Assembly (NCBI GenBank): GCA_034716895.1
Contig: JAYEKW010000062.1
Coordinates: 17,885 to 81,884, forward strand
Origin: Fidelibacterota bacterium
GTDB lineage: Bacteria; Fidelibacterota; UBA8477; JABMPR01
Length of the DNA stretch: 64,000 nucleotides
Direction: 5' to 3'
The notes beneath the pieces are model-generated. The model was not told the DNA's origin. It saw only the letters and a list, made by a program, of their open reading frames with translations, and did no database searches. Positions 13,100 to 31,865 of this stretch are shown here, piece by piece. Each line of letters begins with the position of its first letter. Positions within the stretch are counted from its first letter, which is position 1. The position numbers and the translations under genes are program-made.

Positions 13100-13253
13100 T
13101 TTAATACTGCCTGGGATTCTAATTGCTAAATATAAATATTCTCAATTACTCGAGAAAGTAAAAGTTATTTCTAAGAAGGAAACAAAGACGGCAAAAGAAC
13201 AAGAACACATAGATGAATTAATTAAAACATACAGTGCCAAGGATGTAGAAGAC

Positions 13254-13697: not shown

Positions 13698-13836
13698 AAA
13701 GGGGAAATGTGCGCCAGCCAAGCGAAGCTGGTGCTTTCAAGCTGGACAATCCAGGCCACACAAAGGCTGGTAAGTAAGTGTGGTTATCTTAAAGTGAACA
13801 TTACCCCAACAAAAACGTTAGGACCCCCTGGAGGGG

Positions 13837-14448: not shown

Positions 14449-14613
14449 CAACGTAAGTAGCCCGTATATTTTATAAAGCAGTACTCTTTGACTTGTTATT
14501 CCAATTTCTGACTGCTTATGTCGGAATAAATCGGTCTTCAACGGTCATACCGTCCGTTTTCGGTTAATGGTAAAGCCAAACAAATCTAGAACAAAATTAA
14601 ATTACACAACTAT

Positions 14614-14849
14614 GATGGTCTCGCAAAAAGTACCTCTCGCCCGCCTGCGTATAACTTCGTGCGGGCAGGCAGAGCACGCAGAGCGTTGTATTGAGCCCTT
14701 CGGTTAAGCTCAGGAACCACCTGTCGAAATAGTGCAGAGTATTGATATTAATGGATATAGAAGTATTTGCGTTATGTGGTAAAGATTAAATGAGTTAGGG
14801 CGTATTTGATGATTTTTCAACCGTAAGGAACTTTTTGCGGTTTCGTCAA
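14614..14849 (+). repeat. MITE-like intergenic element, copy A (with a ~55-bp internal insertion relative to copy B)
   Basis: Near-identical to 17941-18121 apart from the extra block cgttgtattgagcccttcggttaagctcaggaaccacctgtcgaaatagtg. The termini tctcgcaaaaagtacc / ggaactttttgcggtttcg form terminal inverted repeats. Confidence 0.85.
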
Positions 14850-15236
14850 CTTTCAATCCAGATATAGTATGATCTAGTCATATACAACCGAATTTCGCGT
14901 TTTCCAGTCAGATCAGTGCAAACTCCAGTAAATACAAATCTCGCACACAGGAAGTCAAACACAATGACAGTGCTTGCATTTAAGCATGTGGCATGGTAAT
15001 ATATCGTGAACTAATCATTAGTGGACATATAGTAGCGCATGCTATTATTAGTATACTGTTATATTGTTTTGTAATAAGCAAAAAGAAAAGACGTGAAGGG
15101 GGATAGGGGACGAGCAAACTTCTGGAGCAACAACACCAGGTTATCCAATACAGTATACGACAGGTAATGGGTATGTTTAGGCTGGAGAAAACAAAAACTA
15201 AGAAAAAACCGATTATGGGACAGAATTTATAACATT

Positions 15237-15905
15237 ATGAAAGTACAAAAAAAAGAACCTCTGGTAATTAAGGATTGTGCGCTTATCGCCCTGGCAACTG
15301 GCAGGAAAGCTCGGACACTCAAAGAACTACGCGATAATCTTGAAATAATTGAATCGGAAAGTATTTACTACCATTTCTGGGGCAGTCTTCTGCGCCCCCG
15401 TTTTGAGGATGCGGAATATCATAATGATTTTGCTGCGTGGGCCGCTCATAGTTTGAATGATAAAAAAATGGCCGAACAACTCGGGGTGGTGGATCCTACA
15501 ACATTTACAACCATGGATAATCTGCGATTTGAGTTACTGGAAATTATTGATGAAAGAATAGATGAGTTAGATGTTTTGCCCACAGCAAGCCGGGATAAGC
15601 AATTTGAATTTATCAGCTCAGAGATTGTTGTGTTTACAACCATGCAGACAGTCATTGAACCTGAGATAATGAAAACGCTTGTGTTAGAACTATCACTGGG
15701 CAGTATTTTTTATCACTTTATCGATGCGCGACGCAGGACATCCGAATCAATTGATGATTTCAGCCATTGGCTCATGTCATTTGGTGATGAATATGAAGAT
15801 GCCATCAACGGCATCGCCGATATTGACCCATACTTTTCACCCCTCACCGATTTACGCAATCAGTTGAGTGAAACCCTAATGAACCAGATACAGGATAAAA
15901 AATGA
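15237..15905 (+). CDS. Conserved hypothetical protein, translationally coupled to treT
   Basis: 222 aa, acidic and soluble. Its stop overlaps the treT start (ATGA at 15902-15905). No recognisable catalytic motif. Confidence 0.6.
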   Translation: MKVQKKEPLVIKDCALIALATGRKARTLKELRDNLEIIESESIYYHFWGSLLRPRFEDAEYHNDFAAWAAHSLNDKKMAEQLGVVDPTTFTTMDNLRFELLEIIDERIDELDVLPTASRDKQFEFISSEIVVFTTMQTVIEPEIMKTLVLELSLGSIFYHFIDARRRTSESIDDFSHWLMSFGDEYEDAINGIADIDPYFSPLTDLRNQLSETLMNQIQDKK

Positions 15906-17143
15906 ATCGTTTGATATTTGATTACGCGCCGATAACAGGACTGGATGTAATTGAACAGCTCCAACAGTTAGCCAAACCGCTTAAAGGGTTGCGCGTTGTG
16001 CATGTCAATTCCACCAAAGCCGGGGGTGGGGTTGCAGAAATATTGGATAAAATGATCCCGCTCATGAACGATTTGGGAATTGATACGAGCTGGGAAGTTA
16101 TCAATGGAAATCCTGATTTTTATAGCTGCACCAAACATTTCCACAATGCTATTCAAGGCAATAATGTACAGATACCAGCGCGTTTGCTACAGGCTTACGA
16201 GAGGACAAACACGGAAAATGCCAGTCGTCTGGAAGCAAAACTCCGCGATGCAGATGTGGTCTTTATACATGATCCGCAACCGGCTCCACTGCTGCAAAAC
16301 ATTAAAGGCAGAAAGGGAAAATGGATCTGGAGATGTCACATCGATGCAAATAAACCTAACAGGCCAGTTTGGAAGTATTTGCGAAATTATATCGCTCAGT
16401 ATGATGCCAGTATATTCTCCCTGGCTGCTTTCGCCCAACCCATGCCGCATCCTGTTTATCTCATTCCTCCCAGTATTGATCCATTGAATGAGAAAAATAT
16501 TGAGTTGGATACCAATGAGATATCTTCAGTTTGTGATCAGTTCAATATCGACCGGGATGCCCCTTTGTTGGTGCAGATCTCTCGTTTCGATCGCTTTAAG
16601 GACCCCATTGGAGTCATTCAGGCTTTGAAGCATGCAAAAAAGTTTGTACCCAATCTGCAATTGGTTCTTGCAGGGGGTGGCGCCAGCGATGATCCTGAAG
16701 GTGAGGAAGTATTAGAGGAAGTGAGATTGGCCTCAAATGGTGATCCGGATATTCACATTTTAGAGCTTCCCAACGATGCTCATCGCCAAATAAACGCACT
16801 TCAATCAGCGGCTACCATCGTCATTCAGAAATCAATTAGGGAAGGCTTTGGCTTAACCGTTACTGAGGGTATGTGGAAGCAAAAACCAGTTATCGGGGGA
16901 GATACTGGTGGGATACGACTCCAAGTGATAAATCATCATACGGGTTTTTTGGTTAATTCTCCTGAAGGGGCTGCCTTGCGTATTCGACATCTTCTTGGTA
17001 ACCCACAAAAATTATCAGAAATGGGTGTGAAGGCAAAAAAGTTTGCGAGAGAAAACTTTTTAATCACAAGGCATATCCGTGAATACTTGACTCTCATGCT
17101 TTCGTTGGTAAGCGGCACAAAACACAGAATTGACCTAAAATAA
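15902..17143 (+). CDS. treT: Trehalose glycosyltransferring synthase TreT (GT4; NDP-glucose + glucose to trehalose)
   Basis: 413 aa. Collinear with archaeal/bacterial TreT blocks: VHVNSTKAGGGVAEIL, FHNAIQGN, HDPQPAPL, WIWRCHID, PPSIDPLNEKNIEL, QISRFDRFKDP, DDPEG, SIREGFGLTVTEGMWKQKPVIG, HTGFLV, AKKFARENFLITRH. Confidence 0.8.
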   Translation: MNRLIFDYAPITGLDVIEQLQQLAKPLKGLRVVHVNSTKAGGGVAEILDKMIPLMNDLGIDTSWEVINGNPDFYSCTKHFHNAIQGNNVQIPARLLQAYERTNTENASRLEAKLRDADVVFIHDPQPAPLLQNIKGRKGKWIWRCHIDANKPNRPVWKYLRNYIAQYDASIFSLAAFAQPMPHPVYLIPPSIDPLNEKNIELDTNEISSVCDQFNIDRDAPLLVQISRFDRFKDPIGVIQALKHAKKFVPNLQLVLAGGGASDDPEGEEVLEEVRLASNGDPDIHILELPNDAHRQINALQSAATIVIQKSIREGFGLTVTEGMWKQKPVIGGDTGGIRLQVINHHTGFLVNSPEGAALRIRHLLGNPQKLSEMGVKAKKFARENFLITRHIREYLTLMLSLVSGTKHRIDLK

Positions 17144-17166
17144 AACCATTACTGGAAGATTATTAT

Positions 17167-17940
17167 ATGAAGAGACTAAACAATGATATAGACCTGCGTA
17201 AATTTTATAAAAAGCTGGATTCGGATGGCCCAAAATTGCTCTTCTTGGATTATGATGGAACATTGGCACCTTTCTGCGATGACCCACAGTTGGCCTATCC
17301 ATATCCAGGTATAAAAAGTATGCTTGATGCAATCATCAGTAATCCCACAGTACGGCTAGTTATTATCACGGGAAGGTCTATTAGCGAACTGCAAGCTTTA
17401 CTTGACCTGAAACAGGATGTAGAGATATGGGGCACCCACGGTCATGAGCACCTGCTCCCCAATGGAGACTATTCCTTGGTTGATCTTAGCCCGAATCAAA
17501 ACATGGGTTTAAGCTTGGGTGTTGATGCGGCTTTGTCTGTAGAGCCTTTGCTCAGGGTAGAAGAGAAACCTGGTGCGGTTGCTTTTCATTGGCGAACTAT
17601 TCAAGCCAAAGATGTTGAGAGATTTCAAAACCAATTAACAATGAAACTTGAAAATATTTCCCAGCATCACGAGTTGGTACTTAAGAAATTTGATGGGGGG
17701 CTGGAGCTTATCTCACCAACAATGGACAAAGGTAGGGCTGTTCGAGAAGTGCTGCGAGAAGTAACCCCAAATACGACAGTGGCTTACCTTGGAGATGATC
17801 TTACGGATGAGGATGCTTTCTGGGAACTAAAATATAAAGGACTGACAGTACTTGTTAGAGATGAATTGCGTGAAACACAGGCGAACCTCTGGATACAACC
17901 ACCTGACGAGCTTCTTCAGTTTTTAGAAAAATGGAAATAG
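17167..17940 (+). CDS. otsB: Trehalose-6-phosphate phosphatase (HAD family)
   Basis: LLFLDYDGTLAPF (HAD motif I), LVIITGRS, and YLGDDLTDEDAF (motif III). 257 aa. Confidence 0.85.
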   Translation: MKRLNNDIDLRKFYKKLDSDGPKLLFLDYDGTLAPFCDDPQLAYPYPGIKSMLDAIISNPTVRLVIITGRSISELQALLDLKQDVEIWGTHGHEHLLPNGDYSLVDLSPNQNMGLSLGVDAALSVEPLLRVEEKPGAVAFHWRTIQAKDVERFQNQLTMKLENISQHHELVLKKFDGGLELISPTMDKGRAVREVLREVTPNTTVAYLGDDLTDEDAFWELKYKGLTVLVRDELRETQANLWIQPPDELLQFLEKWK

Positions 17941-18121
17941 GATGGTCTCGCAAAAAGTACCTCTCGCCCGCCTGCGTATAACTTCGTGCGGGCAGGCAGA
18001 GCACGCAGAGGCGCAGAGTATTGATATTTATGGATTTAGGGGTATTTGCGTTATGTGGTTAATATTAAATGGGTTAGGGCGTATTTGATGATTTTTAAAT
18101 TACTTTTTGCGGTTTCGTCAA
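17941..18121 (+). repeat. MITE-like intergenic element, copy B, inserted between otsB and otsA
   Basis: Begins at the base after the otsB stop codon. 181 bp, with the same TIRs as copy A. Confidence 0.85.
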
Positions 18122-18167
18122 ATAGAAGAAACTGAACGAAAAATTATCCAAGAGGTAAGCAAAAAAA

Positions 18168-19643
18168 ATGAATATGAAACGCCACAGATTAATTATCGTA
18201 TCAAATAGGTTGCCAGTTGTAGTAAATAAAAATATAAGTGGATCACTAGAGGTGAAGCCGGGATCGGGAGGACTGGTCACGGCGCTTGCCCCCGTTTTAC
18301 GTAACCGCGGAGGTGTTTGGCTTGGGTGGTCCGGACTAACTACAGAAAATCCTCGAAAGATTGGGAATTTGCTGTCTTCTCTCGATGACAGAATTGGGTA
18401 TTCACTGGAATCTGTAACATTGGATGAGAACGAGATTGAAAACTACTATAAGGGATTTTCCAATGAAACTTTATGGCCTCTTTTCCATGATCTGATTGAC
18501 CATTGTAAATTTAAACCAGAGTATTGGAAGACCTACCAAAGTGTCAATATGAAATTTGCTCAATCATTAAAAAAGATCATTAAAAAAGATGATTTTATCT
18601 GGATTCATGACTATCACCTGATAAGCATGATCCGTTTTCTAAGAGAGCTGGGTGTAAACAATAAAATTGGTTTCTTCCTGCATATACCCTTTCCGCCTAC
18701 AGATATCTATACACGCCTACCTTGGCGAGTTGATATCTTAGGTGATCTTCTGCAATATGACCTGGTTGGATTTCAATCAGCTCGCGATAGGAGGAATTTC
18801 ACAAGCAGTGTTCGGACACTGATCGACAAACCAAAAATTGAAGGGAAGGGGCAAGTCATTAACATCGTGCGAAAAACACGAACTATGAGGGCTGGAGTCT
18901 TTCCGATCAGCATAGATTATAAAGAATTCGACGACTCAGCAAGTTCAAAACCTGTGACACACAAGGTGGTGACGAAAGAAAAATATTTTGAGGAGCAAAA
19001 GGTAATACTGGGCGTTGATCGTTTAGATTACACAAAAGGTATCCCTGAGCGTCTGGAAGCATTCAGAGAGGCTCTCCGAAGGTATCCAGTCCTGTTGGGC
19101 AAGTTGAGCTTGATCCAAATTCTAGTCCCAAGTCGCAGAGATATACCACATTATGAGAACCTCAAAATTAAAATTGAAAGATTGGTTAGTGAGATAAATG
19201 GGGAGTTTTCACATTCCGGGTGGACACCAATTGAATACCACTTCCGAGCAGTCAGCCGAGATGCATTGTTATCCTATTATCGAATTGCTGAGATCGCGAT
19301 TGTGACTCCATTGAAGGATGGGATGAATCTGGTAGCAAAAGAGTACTGTGCATCAAATCCAGAAGGTATTCTCATCTTGAGTGAATTTGCCGGCGCGGCG
19401 GCTCAGCTAAAATCTGGAGCTTTACTTGTCAATCCACATGACTCGGTAGCGTGTGCTGAAGCAATTCAAAGAGCGGTGCACATGCCAGAATCCGAACGTA
19501 AGGTTAGGATGAAGAAACTCAGAAAAAATGTACATCGCTACGATATTTATTGGTGGGTAGAGAATTTCTTGGATGCCGCATTTGCATCGAAGTTGAGTGA
19601 GTTTTCTCTTATTGCAGACTATACCCCCCTCGCAGAAGGATGA
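18168..19643 (+). CDS. otsA: Alpha,alpha-trehalose-phosphate synthase (GT20)
   Basis: RLIIVSNRLPVVV...GSGGLVTALAPVLRNRGGVWLGWSG...IWIHDYHL...LGVDRLDYTKGI...NPHD are canonical OtsA motifs. 491 aa. Confidence 0.9.
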   Translation: MNMKRHRLIIVSNRLPVVVNKNISGSLEVKPGSGGLVTALAPVLRNRGGVWLGWSGLTTENPRKIGNLLSSLDDRIGYSLESVTLDENEIENYYKGFSNETLWPLFHDLIDHCKFKPEYWKTYQSVNMKFAQSLKKIIKKDDFIWIHDYHLISMIRFLRELGVNNKIGFFLHIPFPPTDIYTRLPWRVDILGDLLQYDLVGFQSARDRRNFTSSVRTLIDKPKIEGKGQVINIVRKTRTMRAGVFPISIDYKEFDDSASSKPVTHKVVTKEKYFEEQKVILGVDRLDYTKGIPERLEAFREALRRYPVLLGKLSLIQILVPSRRDIPHYENLKIKIERLVSEINGEFSHSGWTPIEYHFRAVSRDALLSYYRIAEIAIVTPLKDGMNLVAKEYCASNPEGILILSEFAGAAAQLKSGALLVNPHDSVACAEAIQRAVHMPESERKVRMKKLRKNVHRYDIYWWVENFLDAAFASKLSEFSLIADYTPLAEG

Positions 19644-19727
19644 ATAAGACAACGGTTAAATTTCATGAAACAACTGGAGCATGAAGCCCAGTTATCGTGA
19701 CGAAAACTTGACATCAAGGAGGAAAGC

Positions 19728-20471
19728 ATGTTACGTAGCGTAAAAGAAATTATGGCGTGTAGTCTAGAATCTAAGTCTGGGGAAATTGGTAAATCAAAAG
19801 ACTTATTATTTGATGATGACAAGTGGGTGATCCGATATTTAGTGGCGGATACGGGTAAATGGCTTCTGAGAAGGCAAATTCTTATTTCCCCGATTTCGTT
19901 GAAGGGAATAGATTGGGATACACAGCAATTACCCGTTGACCTTTCCAAAGAACAAATAGAGTCTGCACCCAGTATAGAAACAGATATGCCCGTTTCCAGG
20001 CAGTTTGAAATTGAATTGTCCAAGCATAACAATTGGCCTTATTACTGGACCGGTGAGCAGGCAATGGGAGCTATGCTGACACCGGGAGGCGCATACCCAA
20101 CTATCTTTGATAAAGACAAGTCGGAGGCTGATGTTAAACGTGATAAGCATCTCCGCTCAGTAAATGAGGTTACAGGCTACCATCTCTTAGCGGAAGATGG
20201 AGAGATCGGTCATGTTGAAGACTTTATTGTTGATGATGAGGCTTGGGCAATCCGCTATATCGTTGTGAATACTCGGAACTGGCTCCCCGGTAAAAAGGTT
20301 CTGGTTTCACCATTTTGGTCCAAAACAATTGATTGGGCTGAAAGGAAAATCCTGTTCGGGGTTACCATGGAGCAGATCAAAAACAGTCCAGAGTATGACC
20401 CAACAAAGTCTATCACTCCAGATTATGAGGATCTTCTGTTCGATTATTACGGAATACTGAAAGACATTTAA
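19728..20471 (+). CDS. Tandem PRC-barrel domain protein
   Basis: Two repeats of G..IG.V.DF..DD..W.IRY.V....W...K.L.SP. Confidence 0.65.
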   Translation: MLRSVKEIMACSLESKSGEIGKSKDLLFDDDKWVIRYLVADTGKWLLRRQILISPISLKGIDWDTQQLPVDLSKEQIESAPSIETDMPVSRQFEIELSKHNNWPYYWTGEQAMGAMLTPGGAYPTIFDKDKSEADVKRDKHLRSVNEVTGYHLLAEDGEIGHVEDFIVDDEAWAIRYIVVNTRNWLPGKKVLVSPFWSKTIDWAERKILFGVTMEQIKNSPEYDPTKSITPDYEDLLFDYYGILKDI

Positions 20472-21031
20472 GAGCATGAGTAACATCTGTATCAAATAAA
20501 AGTATGTTCATTTAACAACAATCTGAGAATATACCGGACCATAGATCAAGACAGATTAGCATAGCTGCAATTAATAATAATGGTTCATCATAATAATGCG
20601 TACCTGGATACAATCATTAAGATTGGGGGTCAATAAAATATTCTGGGGTACAAAGGTATAAGGGTTATAAAGACTGTGTGAGAATAGGGCAACTCTTACC
20701 CCATGCTTCAGCTTGGGGTTTAACCGACCACAAGAAATTCGGGGGGGGCTATAGCCCAACTGTGTAGCTGATTAATCTTGGGCTAAAGCCCTTTTTTGTG
20801 TGGATTCTAGATCCCCAAGCTGCATTTCGATAAACTCAATAACCAGCATAGGGTAATTGATAAGTTATTGTTATTCATGTCATTGCATAAGCTCAGTGTA
20901 TCATAATCGTTGTAACTGACTCAAATACAGGTGATTACAGATTTTCGTGAGAAACTTCTGTTGTTAATGTCCCTCCCGTTGGCGAGGAGTATACAAACCG
21001 TAAGAGTCCAAGAAAAATTAATATAGTAATA

Positions 21032-21045
21032 GTTAGTGCACTAAC
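21032..21045. promoter_or_regulatory. Perfect 14-bp palindrome GTTAGTGCACTAAC, candidate MarR-family operator
   Basis: Located ~80 bp upstream of the marR-like gene start. MarR dimers bind such palindromes. Confidence 0.4.
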
Positions 21046-21123
21046 AACTTGTGTAGAGATGATTCGTTTGATATATTCAGCCGTGACTTAAAGAAATAAA
21101 TCAAACGTGAAGAGTAAATTAAA

Positions 21124-21639
21124 ATGACCAAAACAACTGATTCAAAACCCGAAGATAGACAGCTCCCATTTGATCTTCAAATCTTGCAGGCGTTACGTCA
21201 AATTATTCGTGCCATTGATATTCATTCACGGAAACTTAAATCCACCTACAATACCACGACCCCCCAGCTCATTTGCCTGGGTATTATTAAAGATCACGGT
21301 TCTTCCACAGTTACTCGAATTGCCGGGCAAGCCTATTTGAGCACAAGTACGGTAGTGGGAATCCTGGATCGTCTGGAAAAAGAAAGCTTGATATTGAGGG
21401 AAAGAGATAAAAAGGATCGTCGGCTCTGGAATGTCATTCTCACAGAAAAAGGGAAAGCACTTTTAAAGCAGATTCCGTCCCCGTTGCACGATGGTTTACT
21501 CAATGCTTTGCAAAATCTTCCAGAGCGTGAGCAAGCCAATATTGCAGTCTCCCTGTTAAAGATCGTTAATCTGATGGGTGCTGAATCAGTAGAAGCTGCT
21601 CCTATTTTGGAGACCGCACAGATACTCCCCGTAAAATAA
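21124..21639 (+). CDS. MarR-family transcriptional regulator
   Basis: 171 aa with a winged HTH (ITRIAGQAYLSTSTVVGILDRLEKESLILRERDKKDRR). Confidence 0.8.
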   Translation: MTKTTDSKPEDRQLPFDLQILQALRQIIRAIDIHSRKLKSTYNTTTPQLICLGIIKDHGSSTVTRIAGQAYLSTSTVVGILDRLEKESLILRERDKKDRRLWNVILTEKGKALLKQIPSPLHDGLLNALQNLPEREQANIAVSLLKIVNLMGAESVEAAPILETAQILPVK

Positions 21640-21766
21640 AATACATCTATGAATAATACCAATAACCCACAATAACCATTATGCTGAGAACCAAATTTAT
21701 TCTATAACAATCAACTGTTTTACCTCTTGTTACCATCATACCAATTATTTTTTCAGGAAAGCGAAG

Positions 21767-22045
21767 GTGAACATGTTTTCCATATCGGAAACTGCAAAAA
21801 CACGCTTATCAGAAGCTAAAAAAGAACTAAAAGGTCATGCAGGAATGGTCGTGCGGCTCGATGCTTCAACTGATCACAAGGGAGCATTCAAACTATACAT
21901 TGATACAATCCACCCAGGCGATTATAAAATCTATGGTGATGATGAAGAACCAATCCTGGTTTTAGAGGAAACCCTTTTACCCAAACTGGCAAAAACTGGA
22001 CTAGAGTACGATGAACAGTTCTCGTTCGTTCATGTGAGTGACTAG
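21767..22045 (+). CDS. Small hypothetical protein, probably co-transcribed with the downstream symporter
   Basis: 92 aa, soluble. Only 20 bp separate it from the SSS gene. Confidence 0.45.
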   Translation: MNMFSISETAKTRLSEAKKELKGHAGMVVRLDASTDHKGAFKLYIDTIHPGDYKIYGDDEEPILVLEETLLPKLAKTGLEYDEQFSFVHVSD

Positions 22046-22065
22046 GTCTACATAAAGGAGTTCTT

Positions 22066-23493
22066 ATGGCTTTTCTAGATTATGTAATTTTCGTCATCTA
22101 TATGTTGATCATCCTGGGGGTTGGCTATTATTTCTATCGTAAAAATGAATCAGCTGAAGATTACTTCGTAGGTGGTCGTAGCATTTCTCCAACTCATATT
22201 GGTTTGTCAATTGCTGCTACAGATGTTGGTGGTGGCTTTTCAATCGGTTTGGGGGGTCTTGGATATCTGATGGGACTCTCAGGAAGCTGGTTATTATTTA
22301 CAGGGTTATTGGGAGCTTGGTTATCGGCTGTTTTTATTATTCCTCGACTAAAAACTTTGGATTTAGAGCAAGGTTTTATGACTTATCCTGACTTTCTACG
22401 TCATCGGTACAATGGAAAAGTCGCCATGGTAGCAGCTGTGATCTCAGGTGTTGGGTATCTGGGATTTACCAGTGGTCAAATCCTGGCAGGAGCGAAGCTC
22501 ATGTCTGGTTCAGTGATCTCAACAGCACCCTGGGGACTTGAACCACTCACATTCTCTATCTATGTCATCGGGTTTATCATCGTGGCTTACACAGCTCTCG
22601 GTGGTTTGAAGGCAGTTATTTACACCGATACTGTACAATGGATCATCTTAATTAGTGGTCTTATCCTGTTTGCCATCCCCTTTGCCATCATGGAAACTGG
22701 TGGTCTTGGGGCCTTGCGTGAGCAACTCCCTGTGGAATATTTTTCTTTCTCGAACATACAGCCAATTACATTTATCAACTGGCTCCTGACCATCGTACCA
22801 ATTTGGTTGGTAGCCATGACTTTGTATCAACGGGTCTTTGCCAGTCGCTCGGTTAAAGATGCTCAAAAAGCCTGGTATATTGCCGGTGCTTTTGAATATC
22901 CCGTCATGGCTTTTACCGGTGTCATCCTGGGTATGATTGCCCGGGTATTATTCCCTGGTGTTGAAGCGGAAATGGGAGTGCCCATTCTGTTAAGGGAAGT
23001 ACTGCCAATAGGAATTACGGGAATTGTAATTGCGAGTTACTTCTCCGCTATAATGTCCACAGCAGATAGCTGCATACTTGCTTCATCCGGAAATTTTGTA
23101 AATGATTTAATCGAGAAATTGAGTCCCAAATCATATAATGTAAAACAGCTGATCCATATTTCGCAGCTTGTAACCTTAGCAGTTGGAATAATTGCCATTC
23201 TTTTGGCCAGCTCTTTCACCACGGTTCTGGAAACCATACTGTATGCCTATCAGTTCATGGTTGCCGGGCTTTTTATACCAACTCTGGCTGCATTCTTCTG
23301 GAAAAAAGCAACTCCGCTAGCTGCATTATGGGCTATGATTGGTGGTGGCACGTCTGCCCTGACTATGATTATTACCCAGGTCGATTTGCCTTTGGGCTTG
23401 GATCCCACGTTTTATGGTATGCTAATTTCCGCAGTTACACTCGTTGCAGTTTCATATTTAAGGAAGGATGAGGTGAACCATCTCCAAGACTGA
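22066..23493 (+). CDS. Sodium:solute symporter family (SSS) transporter
   Basis: 475 aa, ~13 TM. The N-terminus DYFVGGRSISP...GLSIAATDVGGGFSIGLGGLGY is typical of PutP/PanF-type SSS carriers. Confidence 0.85.
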   Translation: MAFLDYVIFVIYMLIILGVGYYFYRKNESAEDYFVGGRSISPTHIGLSIAATDVGGGFSIGLGGLGYLMGLSGSWLLFTGLLGAWLSAVFIIPRLKTLDLEQGFMTYPDFLRHRYNGKVAMVAAVISGVGYLGFTSGQILAGAKLMSGSVISTAPWGLEPLTFSIYVIGFIIVAYTALGGLKAVIYTDTVQWIILISGLILFAIPFAIMETGGLGALREQLPVEYFSFSNIQPITFINWLLTIVPIWLVAMTLYQRVFASRSVKDAQKAWYIAGAFEYPVMAFTGVILGMIARVLFPGVEAEMGVPILLREVLPIGITGIVIASYFSAIMSTADSCILASSGNFVNDLIEKLSPKSYNVKQLIHISQLVTLAVGIIAILLASSFTTVLETILYAYQFMVAGLFIPTLAAFFWKKATPLAALWAMIGGGTSALTMIITQVDLPLGLDPTFYGMLISAVTLVAVSYLRKDEVNHLQD

Positions 23494-23557
23494 CATCACA
23501 ATTAACTATAAAACCTGTCAACTTCAACATGGTCCGTTAAGCGATCGGGTCTATATC

Positions 23558-24328
23558 ATGAAAATTGTACCAGAAAGAGTACAGGACGTACTGGCATTGG
23601 CGGAATCGTTGGCTCTTGAGCATCATTACTCCAAGATATTTGCCAAGATACCCATAGCTCTCATACCAGAGTTTATGGCCCAGGGATATGAGGAAGAAGC
23701 ACGCATTCCAGGTTTAGGTGAAAAGCCCAAAGGAATCGCTTTTATGTCAAACTTTATTACCAAGAAACGTAAAAAGCCACATAAAACGAGCGAGATAATG
23801 AAAGTAAAGTCTGCCACACTTACACAGGGGCTTTCACGAAAAAGCACAATACTTTCAAAGGATTATTCAATTAAAGAAGCTGAAATAAAAGATAGCCCAG
23901 GCTTGGCATTACTCTACCGTGAGATTTTTGCGAGCTATCCGTTTCCAATTACGGATCCAATTTTTGTCGCTCAAAGCATGGCTGAAAATGTGCGTTATTT
24001 TGTGATCAGACACAAACGGGAAATTGTGGCTGTAGCTGCGGCCGAAATGGACTATGATTGTCGAGCTGTGGAAATGACTGATTTTGCTACAATTCCAGCC
24101 TATAGAGGAAATCAGCTGGGACAAATGCTTTTGGATCACATGGAAACAGCTATGCTTACAGAACCCATAGATACAGCCTATACCATTGCCAGGGCTGTGT
24201 CTTACGGAATGAATATTACCTTTGGACGGGCAGATTACGAATTCGCCGGCACGCTAATTAATAATACTCATATCGGCGGATCCATCGAAAGCATGAATGT
24301 CTGGTATAAACAACTCATCCATATTTAA
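23558..24328 (+). CDS. ablB: GNAT acetyltransferase, putative beta-lysine N6-acetyltransferase
   Basis: 256 aa. Has a C-terminal GNAT fold (AAAEMDYDCRAVEMTDFATIPAYRGNQLGQMLL). It lies immediately upstream of a lysine 2,3-aminomutase in the same orientation, the arrangement known for N-epsilon-acetyl-beta-lysine synthesis. Confidence 0.65.
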   Translation: MKIVPERVQDVLALAESLALEHHYSKIFAKIPIALIPEFMAQGYEEEARIPGLGEKPKGIAFMSNFITKKRKKPHKTSEIMKVKSATLTQGLSRKSTILSKDYSIKEAEIKDSPGLALLYREIFASYPFPITDPIFVAQSMAENVRYFVIRHKREIVAVAAAEMDYDCRAVEMTDFATIPAYRGNQLGQMLLDHMETAMLTEPIDTAYTIARAVSYGMNITFGRADYEFAGTLINNTHIGGSIESMNVWYKQLIHI

Positions 24329-24351
24329 TCAACAAAAACTGGAGTCTTCTT

Positions 24352-25839
24352 ATGCATGGAAAACTACATTCAAACAAAGAATTTAATAAATATCAAACTG
24401 CTGAGACTATTGATGATCTACCTGACCTCGTGACTGATCATTCTGAACTTGATGAAATTAGCGAGATTGAGATACCGGATGCTATTAAAGATCCAGTAAC
24501 TCTGCAGGATCTAGCGCACCGAGACTTTTCGTCAGATTTGTTTTGGCAGAAAATCCCAGCTTTTAAAAATGTAGACCGCGAAACTTTTATGGACGTGAGC
24601 TTCCAAAATAGCAATTCTGCAACAAAAGTAGATCATCTTGATGAGCTTTTGGAAGATTTGGTTCCCGCAGCTTTCCTTGATGATGTGCGTGAAGGAATGA
24701 GGTTGGCGCCCATGAATCTGCGCCTTTCCCCCTATGTTATTAGTCTCATCGATTGGGATAACCCCTATGATGATCCGCTTCGGATTCAATTTATTCCGGT
24801 GGCATCCACGCGTTTGGCTGATCATCCAAAATTGTCATTAGATTCCCTGGAGGAGCAGGCGGATTCTCCTACATCGGGTCTGGTGCATCGATATTTTGAT
24901 AAAGTGCTTTTTCTACCCACTGATGTGTGTCCGGTCTATTGTCGGTTCTGTACGCGCAGTTATGCCATTGGGAGTGATACAGATCAGGTGACAAAAATGA
25001 GTTTTAAGGCGGTCCCCAATACTTGGAATAAGGCGTTTGCCTACATTGCTTCGAGACCGGAAATTGAAGATGTCGTCATTTCTGGTGGAGATACTTACAT
25101 GTTAAAACCTCACCGCATTAAACAAATCGGTGAAACACTATTAGCCATACCCCATGTACGACGGTTGCGCTTTGCCACAAAAGGGCCAGCAGTGATGCCC
25201 ATGAAAATTATTTCTCAACCGGAGTGGACAAATGCCATAATCGACATTGTCAATCAGGGACGGGAAATGAGCAAAGAGGTGGTCGTTCATACTCATTTCA
25301 ATCATAGCAGCGAGATTACGTCCATTACCCGAGAAGCCATGGATCTGTTTTTTAAAGCCGGTGTTACGGTACGCAATCAGAGTGTGCTCTTACGGGGTGT
25401 TAACGATACACCAGAAGCAATGATCAACCTGGTAAGACAATTATCACTCATGAATGTTCAGCCCTACTATGTCTATCAACATGATATGGTTCAAGGGACT
25501 GAAGAATTGAGGACCACGCTAAAAGATGGTCTAGAGCTGGAACGCCACGTGAGAGGTGCGACTGCTGGATTTAACACCCCCACATTTGTAACGGATGCGC
25601 CTGGTGGTGGTGGGAAGAGAGATATCCATAGTTATGATTATTATGACGAGGTAACGGGAATTTCTGTTTACCGCAGCCCCAGTGTTGAAGATGAAATGGT
25701 CTATCTCTATTATGATCCCATTCACCTGTTGTCAGAAAAAGGTCAAAAACTCTGGGAGGATCCTTCGATGCATGAAAAAATGATCCTGGATGCCATTGAG
25801 AAGGCGGGTTACCAGGATTTTTCACAGGCTTATGAATAG
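24352..25839 (+). CDS. ablA: Lysine 2,3-aminomutase (radical SAM, KamA/AblA family)
   Basis: Has CPVYCRFCTRSYAIG (CxxxCxxC) and the KamA N-terminal SPYVISLIDWDNPYDDPLRIQFIP. The ORF carries a ~50-aa N-terminal extension, and the true start may be an internal Met. Confidence 0.85.
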   Translation: MHGKLHSNKEFNKYQTAETIDDLPDLVTDHSELDEISEIEIPDAIKDPVTLQDLAHRDFSSDLFWQKIPAFKNVDRETFMDVSFQNSNSATKVDHLDELLEDLVPAAFLDDVREGMRLAPMNLRLSPYVISLIDWDNPYDDPLRIQFIPVASTRLADHPKLSLDSLEEQADSPTSGLVHRYFDKVLFLPTDVCPVYCRFCTRSYAIGSDTDQVTKMSFKAVPNTWNKAFAYIASRPEIEDVVISGGDTYMLKPHRIKQIGETLLAIPHVRRLRFATKGPAVMPMKIISQPEWTNAIIDIVNQGREMSKEVVVHTHFNHSSEITSITREAMDLFFKAGVTVRNQSVLLRGVNDTPEAMINLVRQLSLMNVQPYYVYQHDMVQGTEELRTTLKDGLELERHVRGATAGFNTPTFVTDAPGGGGKRDIHSYDYYDEVTGISVYRSPSVEDEMVYLYYDPIHLLSEKGQKLWEDPSMHEKMILDAIEKAGYQDFSQAYE

Positions 25840-25874
25840 TCCTGAGTTAAATGCGATACTAAATAGGAGCATAT

Positions 25875-26249
25875 ATGCCATTTCAATTTAGTGTTGAATA
25901 TCCACTGGATATTGTGATTGGAAGAGTTGTGGGAGAAGGGAACTTTTCAGAAACCTTTGGTGAGATCAAGAAATCAATTATTACCAAGCAAGGGGAGGGA
26001 ATAACCAGACGTTTGTATGATTTCCAAGATAGTGACTTCTTTTTTGATATTGATAAGGCTATCCAACTCGTTAACATTATTCAGCATACTGGCAAAATGT
26101 TAAACTCTAAAAAGATAGCCCTCCTTTTTCAGGAAATCCCTGAGACATTCGATCTGGAGCAATTAGCCCCACACTTGGAGTCAGAAGATGTTTCCATCGG
26201 AATTTTTATCGAACAGGCTAAAGCAGTAGAATTCCTAAATCAAAAATAG
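25875..26249 (+). CDS. SpoIIAA/STAS-like small protein (DUF3478-like), paralog of 7971-8336
   Basis: 124 aa, collinear with the other small protein (..G..SETF..I...L.YDF.D...V.I.EQAKAVEFL). Confidence 0.45.
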   Translation: MPFQFSVEYPLDIVIGRVVGEGNFSETFGEIKKSIITKQGEGITRRLYDFQDSDFFFDIDKAIQLVNIIQHTGKMLNSKKIALLFQEIPETFDLEQLAPHLESEDVSIGIFIEQAKAVEFLNQK

Positions 26250-26465
26250 AAAGGAGTCTGATTCCACCTGGCAGATTATAAGGAGAATTTAGGGATATAG
26301 TTCATTATGTTTTTTTGCCATACATAATGGTAAGAAAATTAGCACTAAAAGGGCGAGGATATACAATCTTGACGAAACCGCTAGAAGTATCTGAAAATTC
26401 ATGAAATGTGCCCTAAAACCATTAAATACAACCACATATAGTGAATGCTCCTAATCCATATATAT

Positions 26466-26560
26466 CAACACTTTGCGTCATTTCGATGAACTCAATACAA
26501 CGCTCTGCGCGCTCTGCGCCCTGCGAGAGGGACTTTTTGCGAAGGCGTCAATCTTAAAAG
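26466..26560 (-). repeat. Partial MITE-like element (5' portion, minus orientation)
   Basis: The rc reads attgacgccttcgcaaaaagtccctctcgcagggcgcagagcgcgcagagcgttgtattgag, collinear with the 5' end of copy A but lacking its internal hairpin. Confidence 0.65.
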
Positions 26561-26571
26561 AAGGATTAAGT

Positions 26572-27222
26572 ATGAAAATTAAAAGAGGGAAACAGCTTGG
26601 TTTATTCGTCATCATATTAAGTATGTTTATGCTTATAGCTTGTGAACCGGGGAATCAGGAAAATGTCGATATCAAAACAAGTCAACAGGCATTGGTTGAG
26701 CAAGATGAAATTAAAGAAGTCATCAAACGAGCTGAGGCCGCTGAAGCTCGGATGGCAGAACTGGTGAGCAGACTTGAGAACATTGAAGATCAGTTGGGCG
26801 AAAGAGATCAAAAGGTCTCAGAGCTAAAGCAGCAATTGGTTAACTACAAGAGAGCTATAACTGTTTTTGTCATAATTGTTTTTGTATTACTACTAATTAT
26901 TCTCTACAGTATGCGTGAAAATATCCAAAGCCTCAAATCATTTCCTATGGAATTCACCAGGTTTGGTCAGCGTTTGAGGAAAGCAACAAAACGCAGTTCT
27001 GGTAGGAGCGGTCGTGGAAAAGAAAAGTCTGGGGAGAAAATAAAAAAAGCACAACCAGGTTCTTCTCGATCAGCCAGAAAGAAGATGAGCAGGAAGCCAG
27101 GAAAAACAGATGAACCCAAATCAAAAGCTGAACCAAATTCAACCCGGACCAGCACCAGGAAAACCAAAGATATTGGGAAAAAGACAGTCCCAAAGCCTGC
27201 TTCAGGAAAACCTAAAAAATAG
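26572..27222 (+). CDS. Coiled-coil lipoprotein with a second TM segment and a basic Lys/Arg/Ser-rich tail
   Basis: Start MKIKRGKQLGLFVIILSMFMLIAC (lipobox), preferred over the ORF-track start at 26473, which lies inside the repeat. Confidence 0.55.
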   Translation: MKIKRGKQLGLFVIILSMFMLIACEPGNQENVDIKTSQQALVEQDEIKEVIKRAEAAEARMAELVSRLENIEDQLGERDQKVSELKQQLVNYKRAITVFVIIVFVLLLIILYSMRENIQSLKSFPMEFTRFGQRLRKATKRSSGRSGRGKEKSGEKIKKAQPGSSRSARKKMSRKPGKTDEPKSKAEPNSTRTSTRKTKDIGKKTVPKPASGKPKK

Positions 27223-27239
27223 ATTGGGATGGAACTGAG

Positions 27240-27914
27240 ATGAAAGTTCAAAAATTTATTGTTCGAATATTACTCGGGATGAGCCTGCTATTGTTTATGA
27301 GCTGTTTTGGGAACAATAGCGAATTGCTTCAGGAAAAGGACAAGGAGCTTGACCAACTTCGGGCGGAACTTGAGCAGTTGGATAAACAGCTGGAAGACGA
27401 GAACAAACAAGTTCAAAGGTTTAAAGATGAGCTTGAGAAAAAAAATGAGGATATTACTCAGGAGATACTACGAAGTCAGGCCTATAAAAAAGAAGTAGAA
27501 AAACTAGAAAAGGAACTGAGAGGGACCTTTGTTCTAAGTAATCGTATTCTATTGCCCAACTCAGTATTGTTTAAGTCGGGGAGCGCAGAGTTAAGCGAGA
27601 GAGGACAGCAATTTATTGCTGAAATTGGCGAGACTTTAAGTAGCCATCCACATCGGGAAATCCTAGTTGAGGGGCATAGTGATACGGTTCCAATTAGCTC
27701 AAAATATCGTTGGAAATATACCAGTAACTGGGAACTGTCTTCGGCTAGGGCGTTGGCTGTGCTTCATTATCTTCAGGATGAGGGGCAGATTGCTCCAAAA
27801 CGCTTAGGGGCAGTCTCATACGGAGAATACCACCCTATCACCAGTAATGCCAGATCAGCAGGACGGGCTCAAAATCGTCGGGTAGAAATTGTCATTGGGC
27901 GTCCGCTTAAATAG
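27240..27914 (+). CDS. OmpA-family lipoprotein with an N-terminal coiled coil
   Basis: Lipobox (LLFMSC), then a coiled coil, then a C-terminal OmpA-like domain (SNWELSSARALAV..., NRRVEIVI). Confidence 0.8.
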   Translation: MKVQKFIVRILLGMSLLLFMSCFGNNSELLQEKDKELDQLRAELEQLDKQLEDENKQVQRFKDELEKKNEDITQEILRSQAYKKEVEKLEKELRGTFVLSNRILLPNSVLFKSGSAELSERGQQFIAEIGETLSSHPHREILVEGHSDTVPISSKYRWKYTSNWELSSARALAVLHYLQDEGQIAPKRLGAVSYGEYHPITSNARSAGRAQNRRVEIVIGRPLK

Positions 27915-28110
27915 TTAGTAACAGCTTCGAGCGCTCCACGGTTGTCTCAAAAACCCTAAAAGCCGTCTCAAAGTCAACGTGTCATCGTTTTAGACAATTT
28001 GAGACAGGTCGGATCATTTACAAAATTTTCCGAGCTACTTTTCTCCAACTGATTGTAGTAGCGGTTTATTTTTTCGGATCTCAAGCTTCTTATTTTGCCA
28101 TTAAAATGTG

Positions 28111-28183
<73 letters not shown>

Positions 28184-28430
28184 ATTAAATTTTCAAGCTA
28201 TCCTTTCAGCTAAATCTGATTCTTCGCATCTCGACTCCACTCGATGTGACGATTAAGGATATATTTCAAAATTCTACAGTTTGCAATCTTGCCTGTGTTT
28301 AAAAAAGCTGGTGAATATAGAATTTGCCACATGCTGCTGCAAGTCTTGAGGAAAATGTTAGTTTGTTTTCACTTAATTGGCAGCAATTTTGTTGCTTAAG
28401 AATACTAATGACACGCAAGGGGAAAATAGA

Positions 28431-31400
28431 ATGCATCTGAATATCCGTAAAACATCAATAGTCGTTTTATTCCTAATAGCTGCGATCAGCCAGGTCAACG
28501 CTTTGGAACTGACTTTTCAAAATGATAAAACTGAAATTCGGCTTAGCCAATTAGATCAGAATACAGCTAAATTTGAAATAAGTATTCAGAACATCTCGAT
28601 CGAAGCCATCACCTTACCACAAGGGGAGTTCACCCAGCTCAATATACCCGGATTTCACCGCACTCTGGAAACAGGCGTCCCGCAACTGCCCAGTATGAAC
28701 CGTCTCATCGAATTGCCTCAGGGCGATAATTTTCAAGTTTCACTGATCTATTCAGAAACAGAGACCCTCAATTTGCGAGCATTAGGCTTTGATGCGCCCG
28801 TTTTTCCAGCTCAACCTTCCCTGGCCAAAAATATTGATCCCAACACCGTCCCCTTTCTTATGAATGATGATCTTTACACAGAAGATAATTATCTGGATCA
28901 AGAGCAACTCCAGCTGGACATGCTGGGACAAATGCGAGATGCCAATATTGGACTGCTGAAAATTCAGCCTGTTGAGTATAATCCGGTGACTGGTGAATTA
29001 CGGATACATCATCGACTTAAGCTCCAAATCGACCTCTCTCAGTCTGATTGGCCATTAACCCAGACCAGAAAATCTCAAAAACAAACCGCTGTCTTTTCAG
29101 TATTGCATCGCCAGATCACTTCCCTGGTTCAGCAAGATGGTGTTCGTGAAGATCTGGTCACAGCACCGATCAAAATGGCTATTGTTGCTCACAGCATGTT
29201 CAGCGACGCCCTCCAACCATTTATCCAATGGAAACAGCGGCAAGGCTATACCATCATTGAAGGTTATCTGGGAGAAGGTGACCTGGGAAGCACTTCTACA
29301 TCGATTGAAAACTGGCTGACAGACCTATATAATGGCGGAACGGCTGAAGACCCGGCCCCCAGTTTCGTTCTCCTGGTTGGAGACCGGGCTCAAGTACCGG
29401 CACCCAATGGAAATCACGGATCCCATGTAACGGATCGATATTACGCAGAGGTGACGGGTGACATGCTTCCCGATATGTATTTGGGACGTTTTCCTGCTGC
29501 TTCGGTCAGTCAGCTGGAAGCTATGATCGCTAAGACCCTCATGTATGAGCAATACACAATGACCGACCCCAGCTATTTGGGCGAAGTGGTTATGATCGCC
29601 GGTATGGACGGTACCTTCGGTCCTACTCACGGTAACGGTCAGATCAATTATGGCACGCAGCATTATTTTAATCCCGAACATGGGATTCTTTCGCATACCT
29701 ATCTTTATCCGGTCTCTGGTTCCAGTGCCGCAGCCATCAGAGCGGATTTGTCAGCAGGAGTCGCTTTTGCTAATTATACTGCACACGGAAGCGCCACTAC
29801 CTGGCATGACCCCTATTTATCTATTTCTAATGTCAATGCCTTGACCAACAGCCAGGCATATTTCACCGCCATTGCCAATGCCTGTCTTACTGCAAAATTT
29901 GACACACCTGAATGCATTGGCGAAGCCTTTCTCAGGGCTCCTGACAAAGGAGCCATTGGCTACATCGGCGGTACCAACAGCACATATTGGGATGAAGATT
30001 ATTATTGGGGTGTTGGAAATGGTCCCGTAGTACCATCAGGTGCCACCTATGAACAAACCAGCTGGGGCATGTATGATGGTCTGTTTCATGATCATGGTGA
30101 ACCGGAATCAGAATGGACCATCACCAATTCCGCCATGGTCTATCGTGGCAATCTGGCTGTCACCGAAAGTTCGTCTTCCCGAGCCAATTATTATTGGGAA
30201 ATTTACCAGTTGTTTGGGGATCCCTCTCTTATGACCTATATGGGTGTCCCTGAAACTGCAAGTGTCAGTGTTCCAGATGCAGTTGTCATGGGCAGCAGTG
30301 AAATTGTTATTTCAGCGCCTCCATTTTGCTATGCTTCACTGAATATCAATAATGCAAATATCACAGCTGTGCAAGTTGATGGCATGGGGAATGCCACATT
30401 GTTCTTTGATCCCACTGACCTGATACCAGGTGTCGCTGAACTAGTGGTTACCGGGCAAAATCTGCAACCCTGGTTTGGGGAGATCAATATCATTACGCCA
30501 GATGGTGCCTACCTTATTGTAGATCATATCATACTGGACGATTCACCACAGGGCAATGGTAATGGACAGGCTGATTTTGGTGAAACATTGGATATCTATT
30601 TTACCCTTCATAATGTTGGTGTTGATACGGCGTATAATGTCATTGGTGATCTGAGTACCTGGGATCCCTATGTAACCACTCTGATACAAGCGGCTCAAGT
30701 GGATCTCTTGGCACCTGATTCTACAGTTGCCCAGGGACCCTTCACGATCATGGTCGGATCAGATTGTCCGGATAACCATCTGGCTGAGTTATCTCTTTCG
30801 CTGATGGCTGGTCTGGGACAGTGGACAGCAGATTTTGAGCTTCTGCTACGGGCTCCCCATGTGGTGATGAGCGATATCCTCGTGAATGATGATGATAATC
30901 ACCGACTGGATATTGGTGAAAGCACTATTTTGACCCTATCAATGGAGAACCAGGGAGGCAGCGATCTTTCTACCCTCCAGGTGACCCTCTCTTCTGATGA
31001 TGGATACATCACGTTGCCAGATGCTCCAGTAATTCTATATGATCTGCTGAGTAGTGAGTTACAGGTGGCAGATTTTGCTATTTCTGTTATTCCAGCCACC
31101 CCGGTAGAGCATAACATTACCTTTAACTGGCTGGCAACCGGGGATCTGGGATATACTGCCCAGGGACAATTCAGGTTAGTAGCCGGTCTTATTGTAGAAG
31201 ATTTTGAAAGTGGTAATTTTTCGGCTTTTGATTGGGAATTGGCAGGTCACGTAGATTGGCTGGTTCAATCCCAAGATGTTTTCGAAGGTAACTATGCAGC
31301 CTACTCAGGCAATGTTGGTGATAGTCAGAATGCTGAACTCAGTCTCATTCTGGATGTAACTGAACCAGGTGATCTTTCCTTCATGTACAAGGTCTCTTCC

Positions 31401-31865
31401 GAATCCAGTACATCAGGATATTATGATGGACTTAAATTTTTCATGGATGGGGCGCTTGTGGAACAATGGCAGGGCGAAATATCATGGACAGAAGCAAGCT
31501 ATGCGGTGACCCCTGGATTGCATGAATTCAGCTGGAAATATGAAAAAGACGGATCCGTTTCTCACGGAAGTGACTGCGCCTGGATCGATTTTGTGATCAT
31601 GCCACCCACTTCAAGTTCCGGTGGCGGTTTGGGTGACCTTAACTCAGACGGACAGGTCAATATCCAGGATGTTGTCCGTTTGGTCAATATCATTTTAGGT
31701 CAAGGGGCTGAGCCCACCGATCTGGAATTATTTTATGCCGATCTAAATGGTGATGATAGGGTAGATATTGGAGATCTCGTTTCCATGGTGAATATCATTA
31801 TTGGCGGGAATCAAACTGTGGCAGTGGAGCTCATAAACAAAAGTGCTGAAATTCGAATCAAATAG
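28431..31865 (+). CDS. Secreted gingipain-like cysteine peptidase (peptidase family C25) with a C-terminal dockerin-type Ca-binding repeat pair
   Basis: Has a signal peptide (MHLNIRKTSIVVLFLIAAISQVNA). The C25 catalytic region includes ANYTAHGS (His) and AIANACLTAKFD (Cys). Ig-like middle domains follow. The C-terminus DLNSDGQVNIQDVVRLVNIILG...DLNGDDRVDIGDLVSMVNIIIG is dockerin-like. Confidence 0.75.
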   Translation: MHLNIRKTSIVVLFLIAAISQVNALELTFQNDKTEIRLSQLDQNTAKFEISIQNISIEAITLPQGEFTQLNIPGFHRTLETGVPQLPSMNRLIELPQGDNFQVSLIYSETETLNLRALGFDAPVFPAQPSLAKNIDPNTVPFLMNDDLYTEDNYLDQEQLQLDMLGQMRDANIGLLKIQPVEYNPVTGELRIHHRLKLQIDLSQSDWPLTQTRKSQKQTAVFSVLHRQITSLVQQDGVREDLVTAPIKMAIVAHSMFSDALQPFIQWKQRQGYTIIEGYLGEGDLGSTSTSIENWLTDLYNGGTAEDPAPSFVLLVGDRAQVPAPNGNHGSHVTDRYYAEVTGDMLPDMYLGRFPAASVSQLEAMIAKTLMYEQYTMTDPSYLGEVVMIAGMDGTFGPTHGNGQINYGTQHYFNPEHGILSHTYLYPVSGSSAAAIRADLSAGVAFANYTAHGSATTWHDPYLSISNVNALTNSQAYFTAIANACLTAKFDTPECIGEAFLRAPDKGAIGYIGGTNSTYWDEDYYWGVGNGPVVPSGATYEQTSWGMYDGLFHDHGEPESEWTITNSAMVYRGNLAVTESSSSRANYYWEIYQLFGDPSLMTYMGVPETASVSVPDAVVMGSSEIVISAPPFCYASLNINNANITAVQVDGMGNATLFFDPTDLIPGVAELVVTGQNLQPWFGEINIITPDGAYLIVDHIILDDSPQGNGNGQADFGETLDIYFTLHNVGVDTAYNVIGDLSTWDPYVTTLIQAAQVDLLAPDSTVAQGPFTIMVGSDCPDNHLAELSLSLMAGLGQWTADFELLLRAPHVVMSDILVNDDDNHRLDIGESTILTLSMENQGGSDLSTLQVTLSSDDGYITLPDAPVILYDLLSSELQVADFAISVIPATPVEHNITFNWLATGDLGYTAQGQFRLVAGLIVEDFESGNFSAFDWELAGHVDWLVQSQDVFEGNYAAYSGNVGDSQNAELSLILDVTEPGDLSFMYKVSSESSTSGYYDGLKFFMDGALVEQWQGEISWTEASYAVTPGLHEFSWKYEKDGSVSHGSDCAWIDFVIMPPTSSSGGGLGDLNSDGQVNIQDVVRLVNIILGQGAEPTDLELFYADLNGDDRVDIGDLVSMVNIIIGGNQTVAVELINKSAEIRIK

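Follow-up and report, generated by a model that had tools for sequence, protein, structure and literature searches.

The window analysed here is a 64,000-nucleotide stretch of contig JAYEKW010000062.1 from a Candidatus Marinimicrobia metagenome-assembled genome. It carries a gene cassette for a MarR-family regulator, a sodium:solute symporter (SSS), a GNAT acetyltransferase of the AblB type and an aminomutase of the KamA family. We think it likely that the aminomutase and the acetyltransferase form a biosynthetic core for N-epsilon-acetyl-beta-lysine (NeABL), and we hold the substrate of the symporter less firmly. NeABL is usually treated as a solute of archaea and anaerobes, made by the products of ablA and ablB. 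In the proposed scheme, the KamA-family enzyme would convert L-lysine to beta-lysine by radical S-adenosylmethionine (SAM) and pyridoxal phosphate (PLP) chemistry, and the AblB-type GNAT would then acetylate the epsilon-amino group of beta-lysine from acetyl-CoA to give the compatible solute. The co-transcribed symporter would use the Na+ gradient to import or recapture this solute, or to import the precursor lysine, and the regulator, which resembles EctR and CosR, would repress the genes at low osmolarity until osmotic or ionic stress relieved the repression. We infer the substrate and product, the substrate and direction of the symporter, the response to salt and the mode of regulation from sequence.

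Five co-directional open reading frames (ORFs) on the + strand span 21124-25839 of the window. The marR gene (21124-21639; PF01047, E 3e-13), which is presumed to encode the cassette repressor, is followed by an ORF of 92 residues (21767-22045), by the gene for the 475-residue SSS/SSF symporter (22066-23493; PF00474, E 6.5e-46), by the GNAT gene (23480-24328, with the canonical ATG at 23558 and a conserved N-terminus from about 23480; TIGR03827) and by the gene for the 495-residue aminomutase (24352-25839; TIGR00238), whose ATG is preceded by GGAG at 8 nt. The successive intergenic gaps are 127, 20, 64 (to the ATG at 23558) and 23 nt. ORF calls recovered on the + strand all of the ORFs described in an earlier reading of the same sequence (the original prediction), and the MarR and trehalose genes that it had placed nearby are present as well. 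Pfam and NCBIfam searches bear out the family assignments of the cassette.

A conserved cassette with variable gene order

Scanning one genome per species returned 218 relatives, the best 80 of them at 58-85% identity. These 80 came from Marinimicrobia, Calditrichota, Bacteroidota, Gemmatimonadota, Planctomycetota, Acidobacteriota and Eisenbacteria among others, and they also span Krumholzibacteriia, Fibrobacterota, Bdellovibrionota, Armatimonadota, Sumerlaeota and Thermithiobacillus. Gene context was counted in 50 species loci from about 15 phyla that had at least 3.5 kb on either side of the KamA gene. A GNAT gene was present in 44 of these well-flanked loci and an SSS gene in 32, and in 32 the gene immediately before KamA encoded a MarR homologue (30-71% identity), so the adjacency of these genes is not due to chance. 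The original prediction had treated the symporter and the regulator as mere neighbours; recurring in 32 loci each, they are instead conserved core members of the cassette. It had also bounded the module at 21767-25839, and the marR gene lies outside those bounds yet is part of the module.

At least three gene orders occur. MarR-KamA-SSS-GNAT is the commonest and is found mainly in Bacteroidota and Calditrichota; MarR-KamA-GNAT, with or without a following SSS gene, is found in Planctomycetota and others, and SSS-GNAT-KamA, the type seen in the window, in Marinimicrobia and Gemmatimonadota. Because the order varies among lineages, placing the acetyltransferase gene first is a lineage trait. The 'reversed' order had been put forward as a distinguishing feature, and it loses its novelty given this variety within the family and the same arrangement in the Bacillus subtilis yodP-kamA pair.

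In one Gemmatimonadota locus (L003), an AA_permease-Usp gene and a mechanosensitive (MS) channel gene lie just upstream of the cassette. The 62-kb plasmid pFA9 of Fulvitalea axinellae carries the whole MarR-KamA-SSS-ablB cassette (L093, 7852-11822), which suggests that the cassette moves horizontally. PGAP names its genes there as 'KamA family radical SAM protein', 'sodium:solute symporter family protein' and ablB. Fulvitalea axinellae is a cultivated, sponge-associated Bacteroidota strain.

An AblB-type acetyltransferase

The GNAT scored 273.2 bits against TIGR03827 (GNAT_ablB; cutoff 205.1), with an alignment that runs from position 16 to the last position (266) of the profile. Its identity to the beta-lysine N-acetyltransferases of Methanolobus, Clostridium and Prosthecochloris is 42-48%, with 48% to AblB of Methanolobus vulcani and 43% to the Prosthecochloris protein. 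Judged by these matches, it is a true member of the AblB family and not a generic acetyltransferase, a possibility that the original prediction had raised against itself. No solved structure matched the GNAT at E<=0.01.

Translation from ATG 23558 gives a protein of 256 residues, and most homologues have about 280. The 27 in-frame codons at 23477-23557 encode the family-invariant residues D6, H18, G19, R24 and Y26 (alignment A1), and the true start probably lies upstream of 23558. This stretch has no ATG, GTG or TTG, and only ATC 23480 and ATT 23501 would be usable as a start. Since invariant residues are encoded upstream of the ATG and no canonical codon is found there, either the start is non-canonical or the gene is damaged. 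The true start is probably ATC 23480 or ATT 23501, with an overlap of the SSS stop codon at 23491-23493. A close GNAT homologue (P0273) begins with leucine one codon past the ATC 23480 of the window.

A presumed lysine 2,3-aminomutase of a non-classical clade

The window aminomutase passes the KamA family model TIGR00238 (239 bits, cutoff 199.2) and fails the AblA equivalog TIGR03820 (268.2 bits, cutoff 525.4). Its scores on the glutamate, arginine, AblA_like_2 and EpmB models are 220, 207, 242 and 183 bits. A genuine AblA (P0171) scored 638 bits on TIGR03820, and 509, 424, 324 and 259 bits on the same four models. The window enzyme scores below this reference on all five models and therefore lies outside the whole classical cluster.

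We built a neighbour-joining tree with E. coli EpmB as the outgroup and 100 bootstraps. The window family itself was monophyletic in 99 of 100 replicates, and the wider clade that holds it was monophyletic in 100 of 100, never with a classical sequence inside. Methanolobus AblA, Clostridium KamA and the C. subterminale lysine 2,3-aminomutase (2a5h) grouped together, apart from the window clade. The window aminomutase is thus not an AblA orthologue and, by its position in the tree, belongs to a separate, deep clade of paralogues. Its earlier description as a KamA homologue with a CxxxCxxC motif stands, and its assignment to the AblA clade does not. The contrast drawn there between AblA and the fermentation KamA enzymes is not a phylogenetic one either, given that these proteins cluster together.

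Among the relatives of the window enzyme, a structure has been solved only for the C. subterminale enzyme 2a5h (phmmer E 1.6e-64; 35% identity), which was also the top Foldseek match of the AlphaFold2 (AF2) model of the aminomutase (E 2e-28, TM 0.63/0.75; overall pLDDT of the model 84.9). The cluster, PLP and lysine-binding residues are common to both proteins: C125, C129, C132, R134, D293, D330 and K337 of 2a5h are all kept in the window enzyme. The motif CPVYCRFC (residues 193-200; codons 24928-24951, + strand), which is the CxxxCxxC motif for the [4Fe-4S]/SAM cluster, aligns to the three cysteines and is invariant across 52 family members. DAPGGGGK aligns to the PLP lysine K337, which is also invariant in the family and, like the three cysteines, conserved in the wider clade. 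All 10 family members compared keep Asp293, Asp330 and Arg134, as do 31 of the 33 further members of the clade, the remaining two being gapped. In the C. subterminale enzyme, Asp293 and Asp330 hold the epsilon-ammonium group of lysine and Arg134 binds its carboxylate.

The window enzyme differs from 2a5h in several respects. The zinc ligand Cys268 is replaced by Thr, and the members of the family have T, N, S or D at this position. There are three cysteines in the protein in total, all within CPVYCRFC, so the C-terminal zinc-binding cysteines of the clostridial enzyme have no counterpart. The C-terminus is a distinct, conserved domain of 70 residues, and the N-terminus carries about 60 extra residues, with window residue 71 aligning to residue 9 of the C. 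subterminale enzyme. This extension had been predicted to be acidic and about 50 residues long; it is acidic, with 14 acidic and four basic residues among residues 1-55, and it is longer than predicted. It is gap-free in all 120 close homologues and is folded in the AF2 model (pLDDT 85-92).

The symporter and the regulator

The symporter scored 157 bits against PF00474 (cutoff 22.8) and lies below the cutoff of every substrate-defined NCBIfam equivalog, for example PutP (168 bits against 515). Among solved structures, the SGLTs and SiaT come closest to it (E 1e-16 to 1e-23). Across the cassettes of other phyla the SSS is 53-79% identical, and the GNAT is less conserved (26-73%). On plasmids, SSS matches reach 47-54% identity in a few Bacteroidota and at most 32% elsewhere. 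We presume that this cassette-specific subfamily consists of Na+-coupled importers of the solute or of lysine.

Two symporter loci without an aminomutase gene were also seen. On a plasmid of Chondrinema litorale, an SSS gene lies between an ABC-type gene and a gene for an AraC regulator, without an aminomutase or GNAT gene. In Halobacteriovorax sp. JY17 (L089, 6001-9165), a gene for an AblB-like GNAT is followed by genes for an SSS and an MscS-type channel, and no aminomutase gene is nearby. The Halobacteriovorax locus was considered as support for a link between GNAT and SSS and was set aside, its symporter being 27% identical and of another subfamily.

Relatives of the window MarR protein are scarce on plasmids, where only 41 of 72,556 records match at E<1e-8. 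Four of four inspected matches outside such cassettes (32.9-37.6% identity) adjoin ectABC(-D)-ask clusters. With its nearest non-cassette relatives flanking ectABC, the regulator is of the EctR/CosR type, an assignment made by similarity and gene context, as a curated EctR model is absent from the libraries used. A perfect 14-bp palindrome, GTTAGTGCACTAAC, lies at 21032-21045, about 80 bp 5' of the marR start; no other perfect palindrome in the 220 bp before marR is as long, and the window holds no second exact copy of it. We consider it a speculative candidate operator. In the other loci the palindromes that precede marR vary between loci and yielded no common operator motif.

Comparison with known systems

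Methanolobus vulcani (L087) has the methanogen pair ablA-ablB. Like the window, it has adjacent, co-directional genes for an aminomutase and an AblB GNAT, and the catalytic residues of the aminomutase are common to both. However, the two aminomutases are about 36% identical and belong to different clades, and the window enzyme is without the zinc site and carries additional parts at both termini. The Methanolobus locus contains neither an SSS nor a MarR gene and has a gene for an AsnC-type regulator downstream, and the GNAT gene comes first only in the window.

In Prosthecochloris sp. GSB1 (L099), a green sulfur bacterium, MarR, AblA, SSS and AblB are encoded in one co-directional block with the same four functions as in the window. 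The symporters of the two loci are 59% identical, the GNATs 43% and the regulators 32%. In contrast, the Prosthecochloris aminomutase (437 residues) is of the classical type, being 69% identical to Methanolobus AblA and 36% identical to the window enzyme. Gene order differs as well, with the aminomutase gene directly after marR in Prosthecochloris (MarR-aminomutase-SSS-GNAT) and last in the window (MarR-92-residue ORF-SSS-GNAT-aminomutase). Because an orthologous symporter, together with an orthologous GNAT and MarR, accompanies a classical AblA in Prosthecochloris, we conclude that this is one cassette whose aminomutase slot takes either type of enzyme, and that the aminomutase has been swapped for a paralogue. 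No other comparison argues as strongly that AblB receives its beta-lysine from the window enzyme. Papers citing Triado-Margarit 2011 state that green sulfur bacteria accumulate NeABL.

In B. subtilis, as in the window, the acetyltransferase gene yodP precedes the aminomutase gene kamA. We take B. subtilis KamA to be of the classical type, and the yodP-kamA pair to lie within a longer operon. Overexpression of yodP-kamA yields NeABL (Muller et al. 2011, as cited in PMC9049628). Ectoine clusters offer a likeness in design only, since their biosynthetic enzymes likewise come with a MarR repressor and a Na+ symporter but are different enzymes that make another solute; a repressor, EctR, together with an SSS-type importer, EctI, is an established design in such clusters (PMC13342039).

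Genomic surroundings and small ORFs

The genes upstream of the cassette include those for OtsA (18168-19643), OtsB (17167-17940), a TreT-like GT1 glycosyltransferase (15902-17143) and a DUF5752 protein (15237-15905). The DUF5752 and TreT-like genes overlap by 4 nt beside OtsB and OtsA, and the pair may be a second sugar-solute route. Also upstream are genes for a TrkA_C-domain protein (10598-11266) and for an AA_permease/SLC12-like transporter of 809 residues (5470-7899), and an MscS-type channel is encoded on the minus strand (3775-5070). The predicted osmolyte-related neighbourhood is thus borne out, and the OtsA/OtsB, TreT-like, MscS, SLC12-like and TrkA_C genes that surround the cassette support an osmotic role for it.

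A tRNA gene on the minus strand (28111-28183; Rfam) is followed by a gene for a gingipain-like C25 peptidase of 1162 residues with a dockerin domain (28377-31865). No riboswitch or RNA regulator was found, as an Rfam search at E<=1 over 14500-28500 returned only this tRNA gene. The GC content drops to 0.34 at 12001-14000 and is about 0.43 in the rest of the window.

The ORF of 92 residues at 21767-22045, annotated as a hypothetical protein of 90 residues, has no Pfam or NCBIfam match even at E<=10 and matched only itself among 5.8 billion proteins. Its one counterpart, an ORF of 34% identity, takes the corresponding place in L062, the Marinimicrobia locus closest to the window. It is therefore a lineage-specific orphan, and its membership in the module is uncertain. 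A HesB/IscA-like pattern seen by eye had suggested an Fe-S carrier; this idea was dropped, given that the ORF has no cysteine and no Pfam match. A second small ORF, of 124 residues (25875-26249), lies 35 nt downstream of the KamA gene and has an AGGAG ribosome-binding site; it has no family match, and none of 86 related loci holds a homologue.

Weighing the alternatives

Several lines of evidence converge on NeABL. The GNAT passes the AblB model (273 bits against 205) and the aminomutase keeps its catalytic and lysine-binding residues, which makes AblA/AblB-type chemistry for NeABL, as originally predicted, very probable. The same reading is supported by the pairing of aminomutase and GNAT in 44 of the 50 well-flanked loci and by the acetyltransferase-first yodP-kamA pair, which makes NeABL on overexpression. 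A role for the product as an osmolyte is supported by the MarR relatives that flank ectABC and by the EctR and EctI design of the ectoine clusters.

The same genes could be read as an uptake and modification module or a catabolic one, in which the SSS would import lysine or a derivative and acetyl-beta-lysine would be an intermediate or a nitrogen store, much as in the sporulation-linked yodT-kamA operon of B. subtilis. The products of yodP-kamA reportedly play no role in osmoprotection (PMC9049628), and the symporter is the most conserved accessory gene (53-79%) and also occurs alone, which fits a nutrient importer. However, none of the inspected loci has a gene for a downstream catabolic step, such as one for an aminotransferase, deacetylase or CoA-transferase, beside the cassette, the regulator is of a type tied to ectoine clusters, and the cassettes of the window and of the Gemmatimonadota locus L003 sit among trehalose, MscS and ion-transport genes. 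We therefore judge a catabolic module unlikely. It seems more improbable still that the aminomutase acts on another basic amino acid, such as ornithine or arginine, which the GNAT would then acetylate to give a related but different solute. Such a change of substrate would fit an enzyme that lies outside every substrate-defined NCBIfam equivalog (268, 220 and 207 bits for AblA, glutamate and arginine), has different N- and C-terminal parts and lacks the zinc site. Yet no member of the family departs from Asp293, Asp330, Arg134 or Lys337, the place of the enzyme in the operon is one that a classical AblA fills next to an orthologous SSS and AblB, and the GNAT is as close to a methanogen AblB (48%) as to the GNATs of its own type of cassette in other phyla (37-43%).

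The last alternative, that the aminomutase is of the EpmB type and provides beta-lysine for the modification of elongation factor P, beside an unrelated generic acetyltransferase, had been named in the original prediction as well, and we regard it as effectively refuted. In its favour, EpmB too belongs among the lysine 2,3-aminomutases of the KamA family and has no C-terminal zinc domain. But the window enzyme scores 183.1 bits on TIGR03821 (EpmB; cutoff 369.3), the lowest among six KamA-type models, the tree places its family clade apart from EpmB, neither epmA nor efp lies near it within 21000-28000, and the GNAT passes the AblB equivalog.

Some observations weigh against NeABL synthesis as the function of the cassette. 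The aminomutase is about equally far from AblA (268 bits) and from the glutamate and arginine models (220 and 207 bits); it fails the AblA cutoff and scores near those models, so sequence models alone leave its substrate unfixed. We found no characterised member of its clade in the literature. One 53%-identical clade member (P0122) lies between an MFS transporter gene and an ORF with an AMP-binding-like motif (L097, 1161-4450), and for this reason the wider clade is not NeABL-specific and probably also serves natural-product pathways; for the more distant members, context comes from short contigs only. The GNAT gene, without a canonical start codon, could be truncated or inactive in this genome. 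A cassette-type symporter of 51% identity stands alone on the Chondrinema litorale plasmid (L096, 5001-6446). Promoter and terminator scans gave no signal over background, with counts equal to those of shuffled controls. Finally, NeABL is reported (PMC9049628) to play no part in osmoprotection in B. subtilis, so a role in stress defence does not follow automatically.

Implications

Both the chemistry and the broad distribution of kamA and ablB among bacteria are already known (PMC11337218), and automatic annotation already names ablB in such cassettes. In the open literature we found no description of the replacement of AblA by a deep, zinc-free paralogue, of the conserved symporter or of the EctR-like regulator, and the 2011 paper on green sulfur bacteria may mention a symporter. 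A bolder version of our proposal, which we offer tentatively and consider rather doubtful as a whole, is that of a mobile four-gene NeABL cassette (EctR-like MarR, aminomutase, SSS and AblB) whose aminomutase slot has been filled twice, with classical AblA in green sulfur bacteria and with the zinc-free, three-cysteine deep paralogue in Marinimicrobia, Bacteroidota, Gemmatimonadota, Planctomycetota and further phyla. Several of the phyla that bear the paralogue include aerobes. The paralogue would then be an oxygen-tolerant lysine 2,3-aminomutase, and the SSS would be the first dedicated NeABL transporter.

If NeABL synthesis is indeed the function, a second aminomutase lineage would do the job of AblA in many phyla of bacteria, among them the Marinimicrobia, which are abundant in the sea, and surveys based on AblA-specific equivalog models (TIGR03820, for instance) would fail to count this enzyme as AblA. 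The zinc-free, three-cysteine enzyme may be of interest for research on radical-SAM aminomutases and for beta-lysine production. Cultivated carriers, namely Fulvitalea axinellae, Thermithiobacillus tepidarius and Reichenbachiella, make these ideas directly testable, and the conserved SSS and EctR-like regulator would be concrete candidates for the transporter and the regulator of NeABL.

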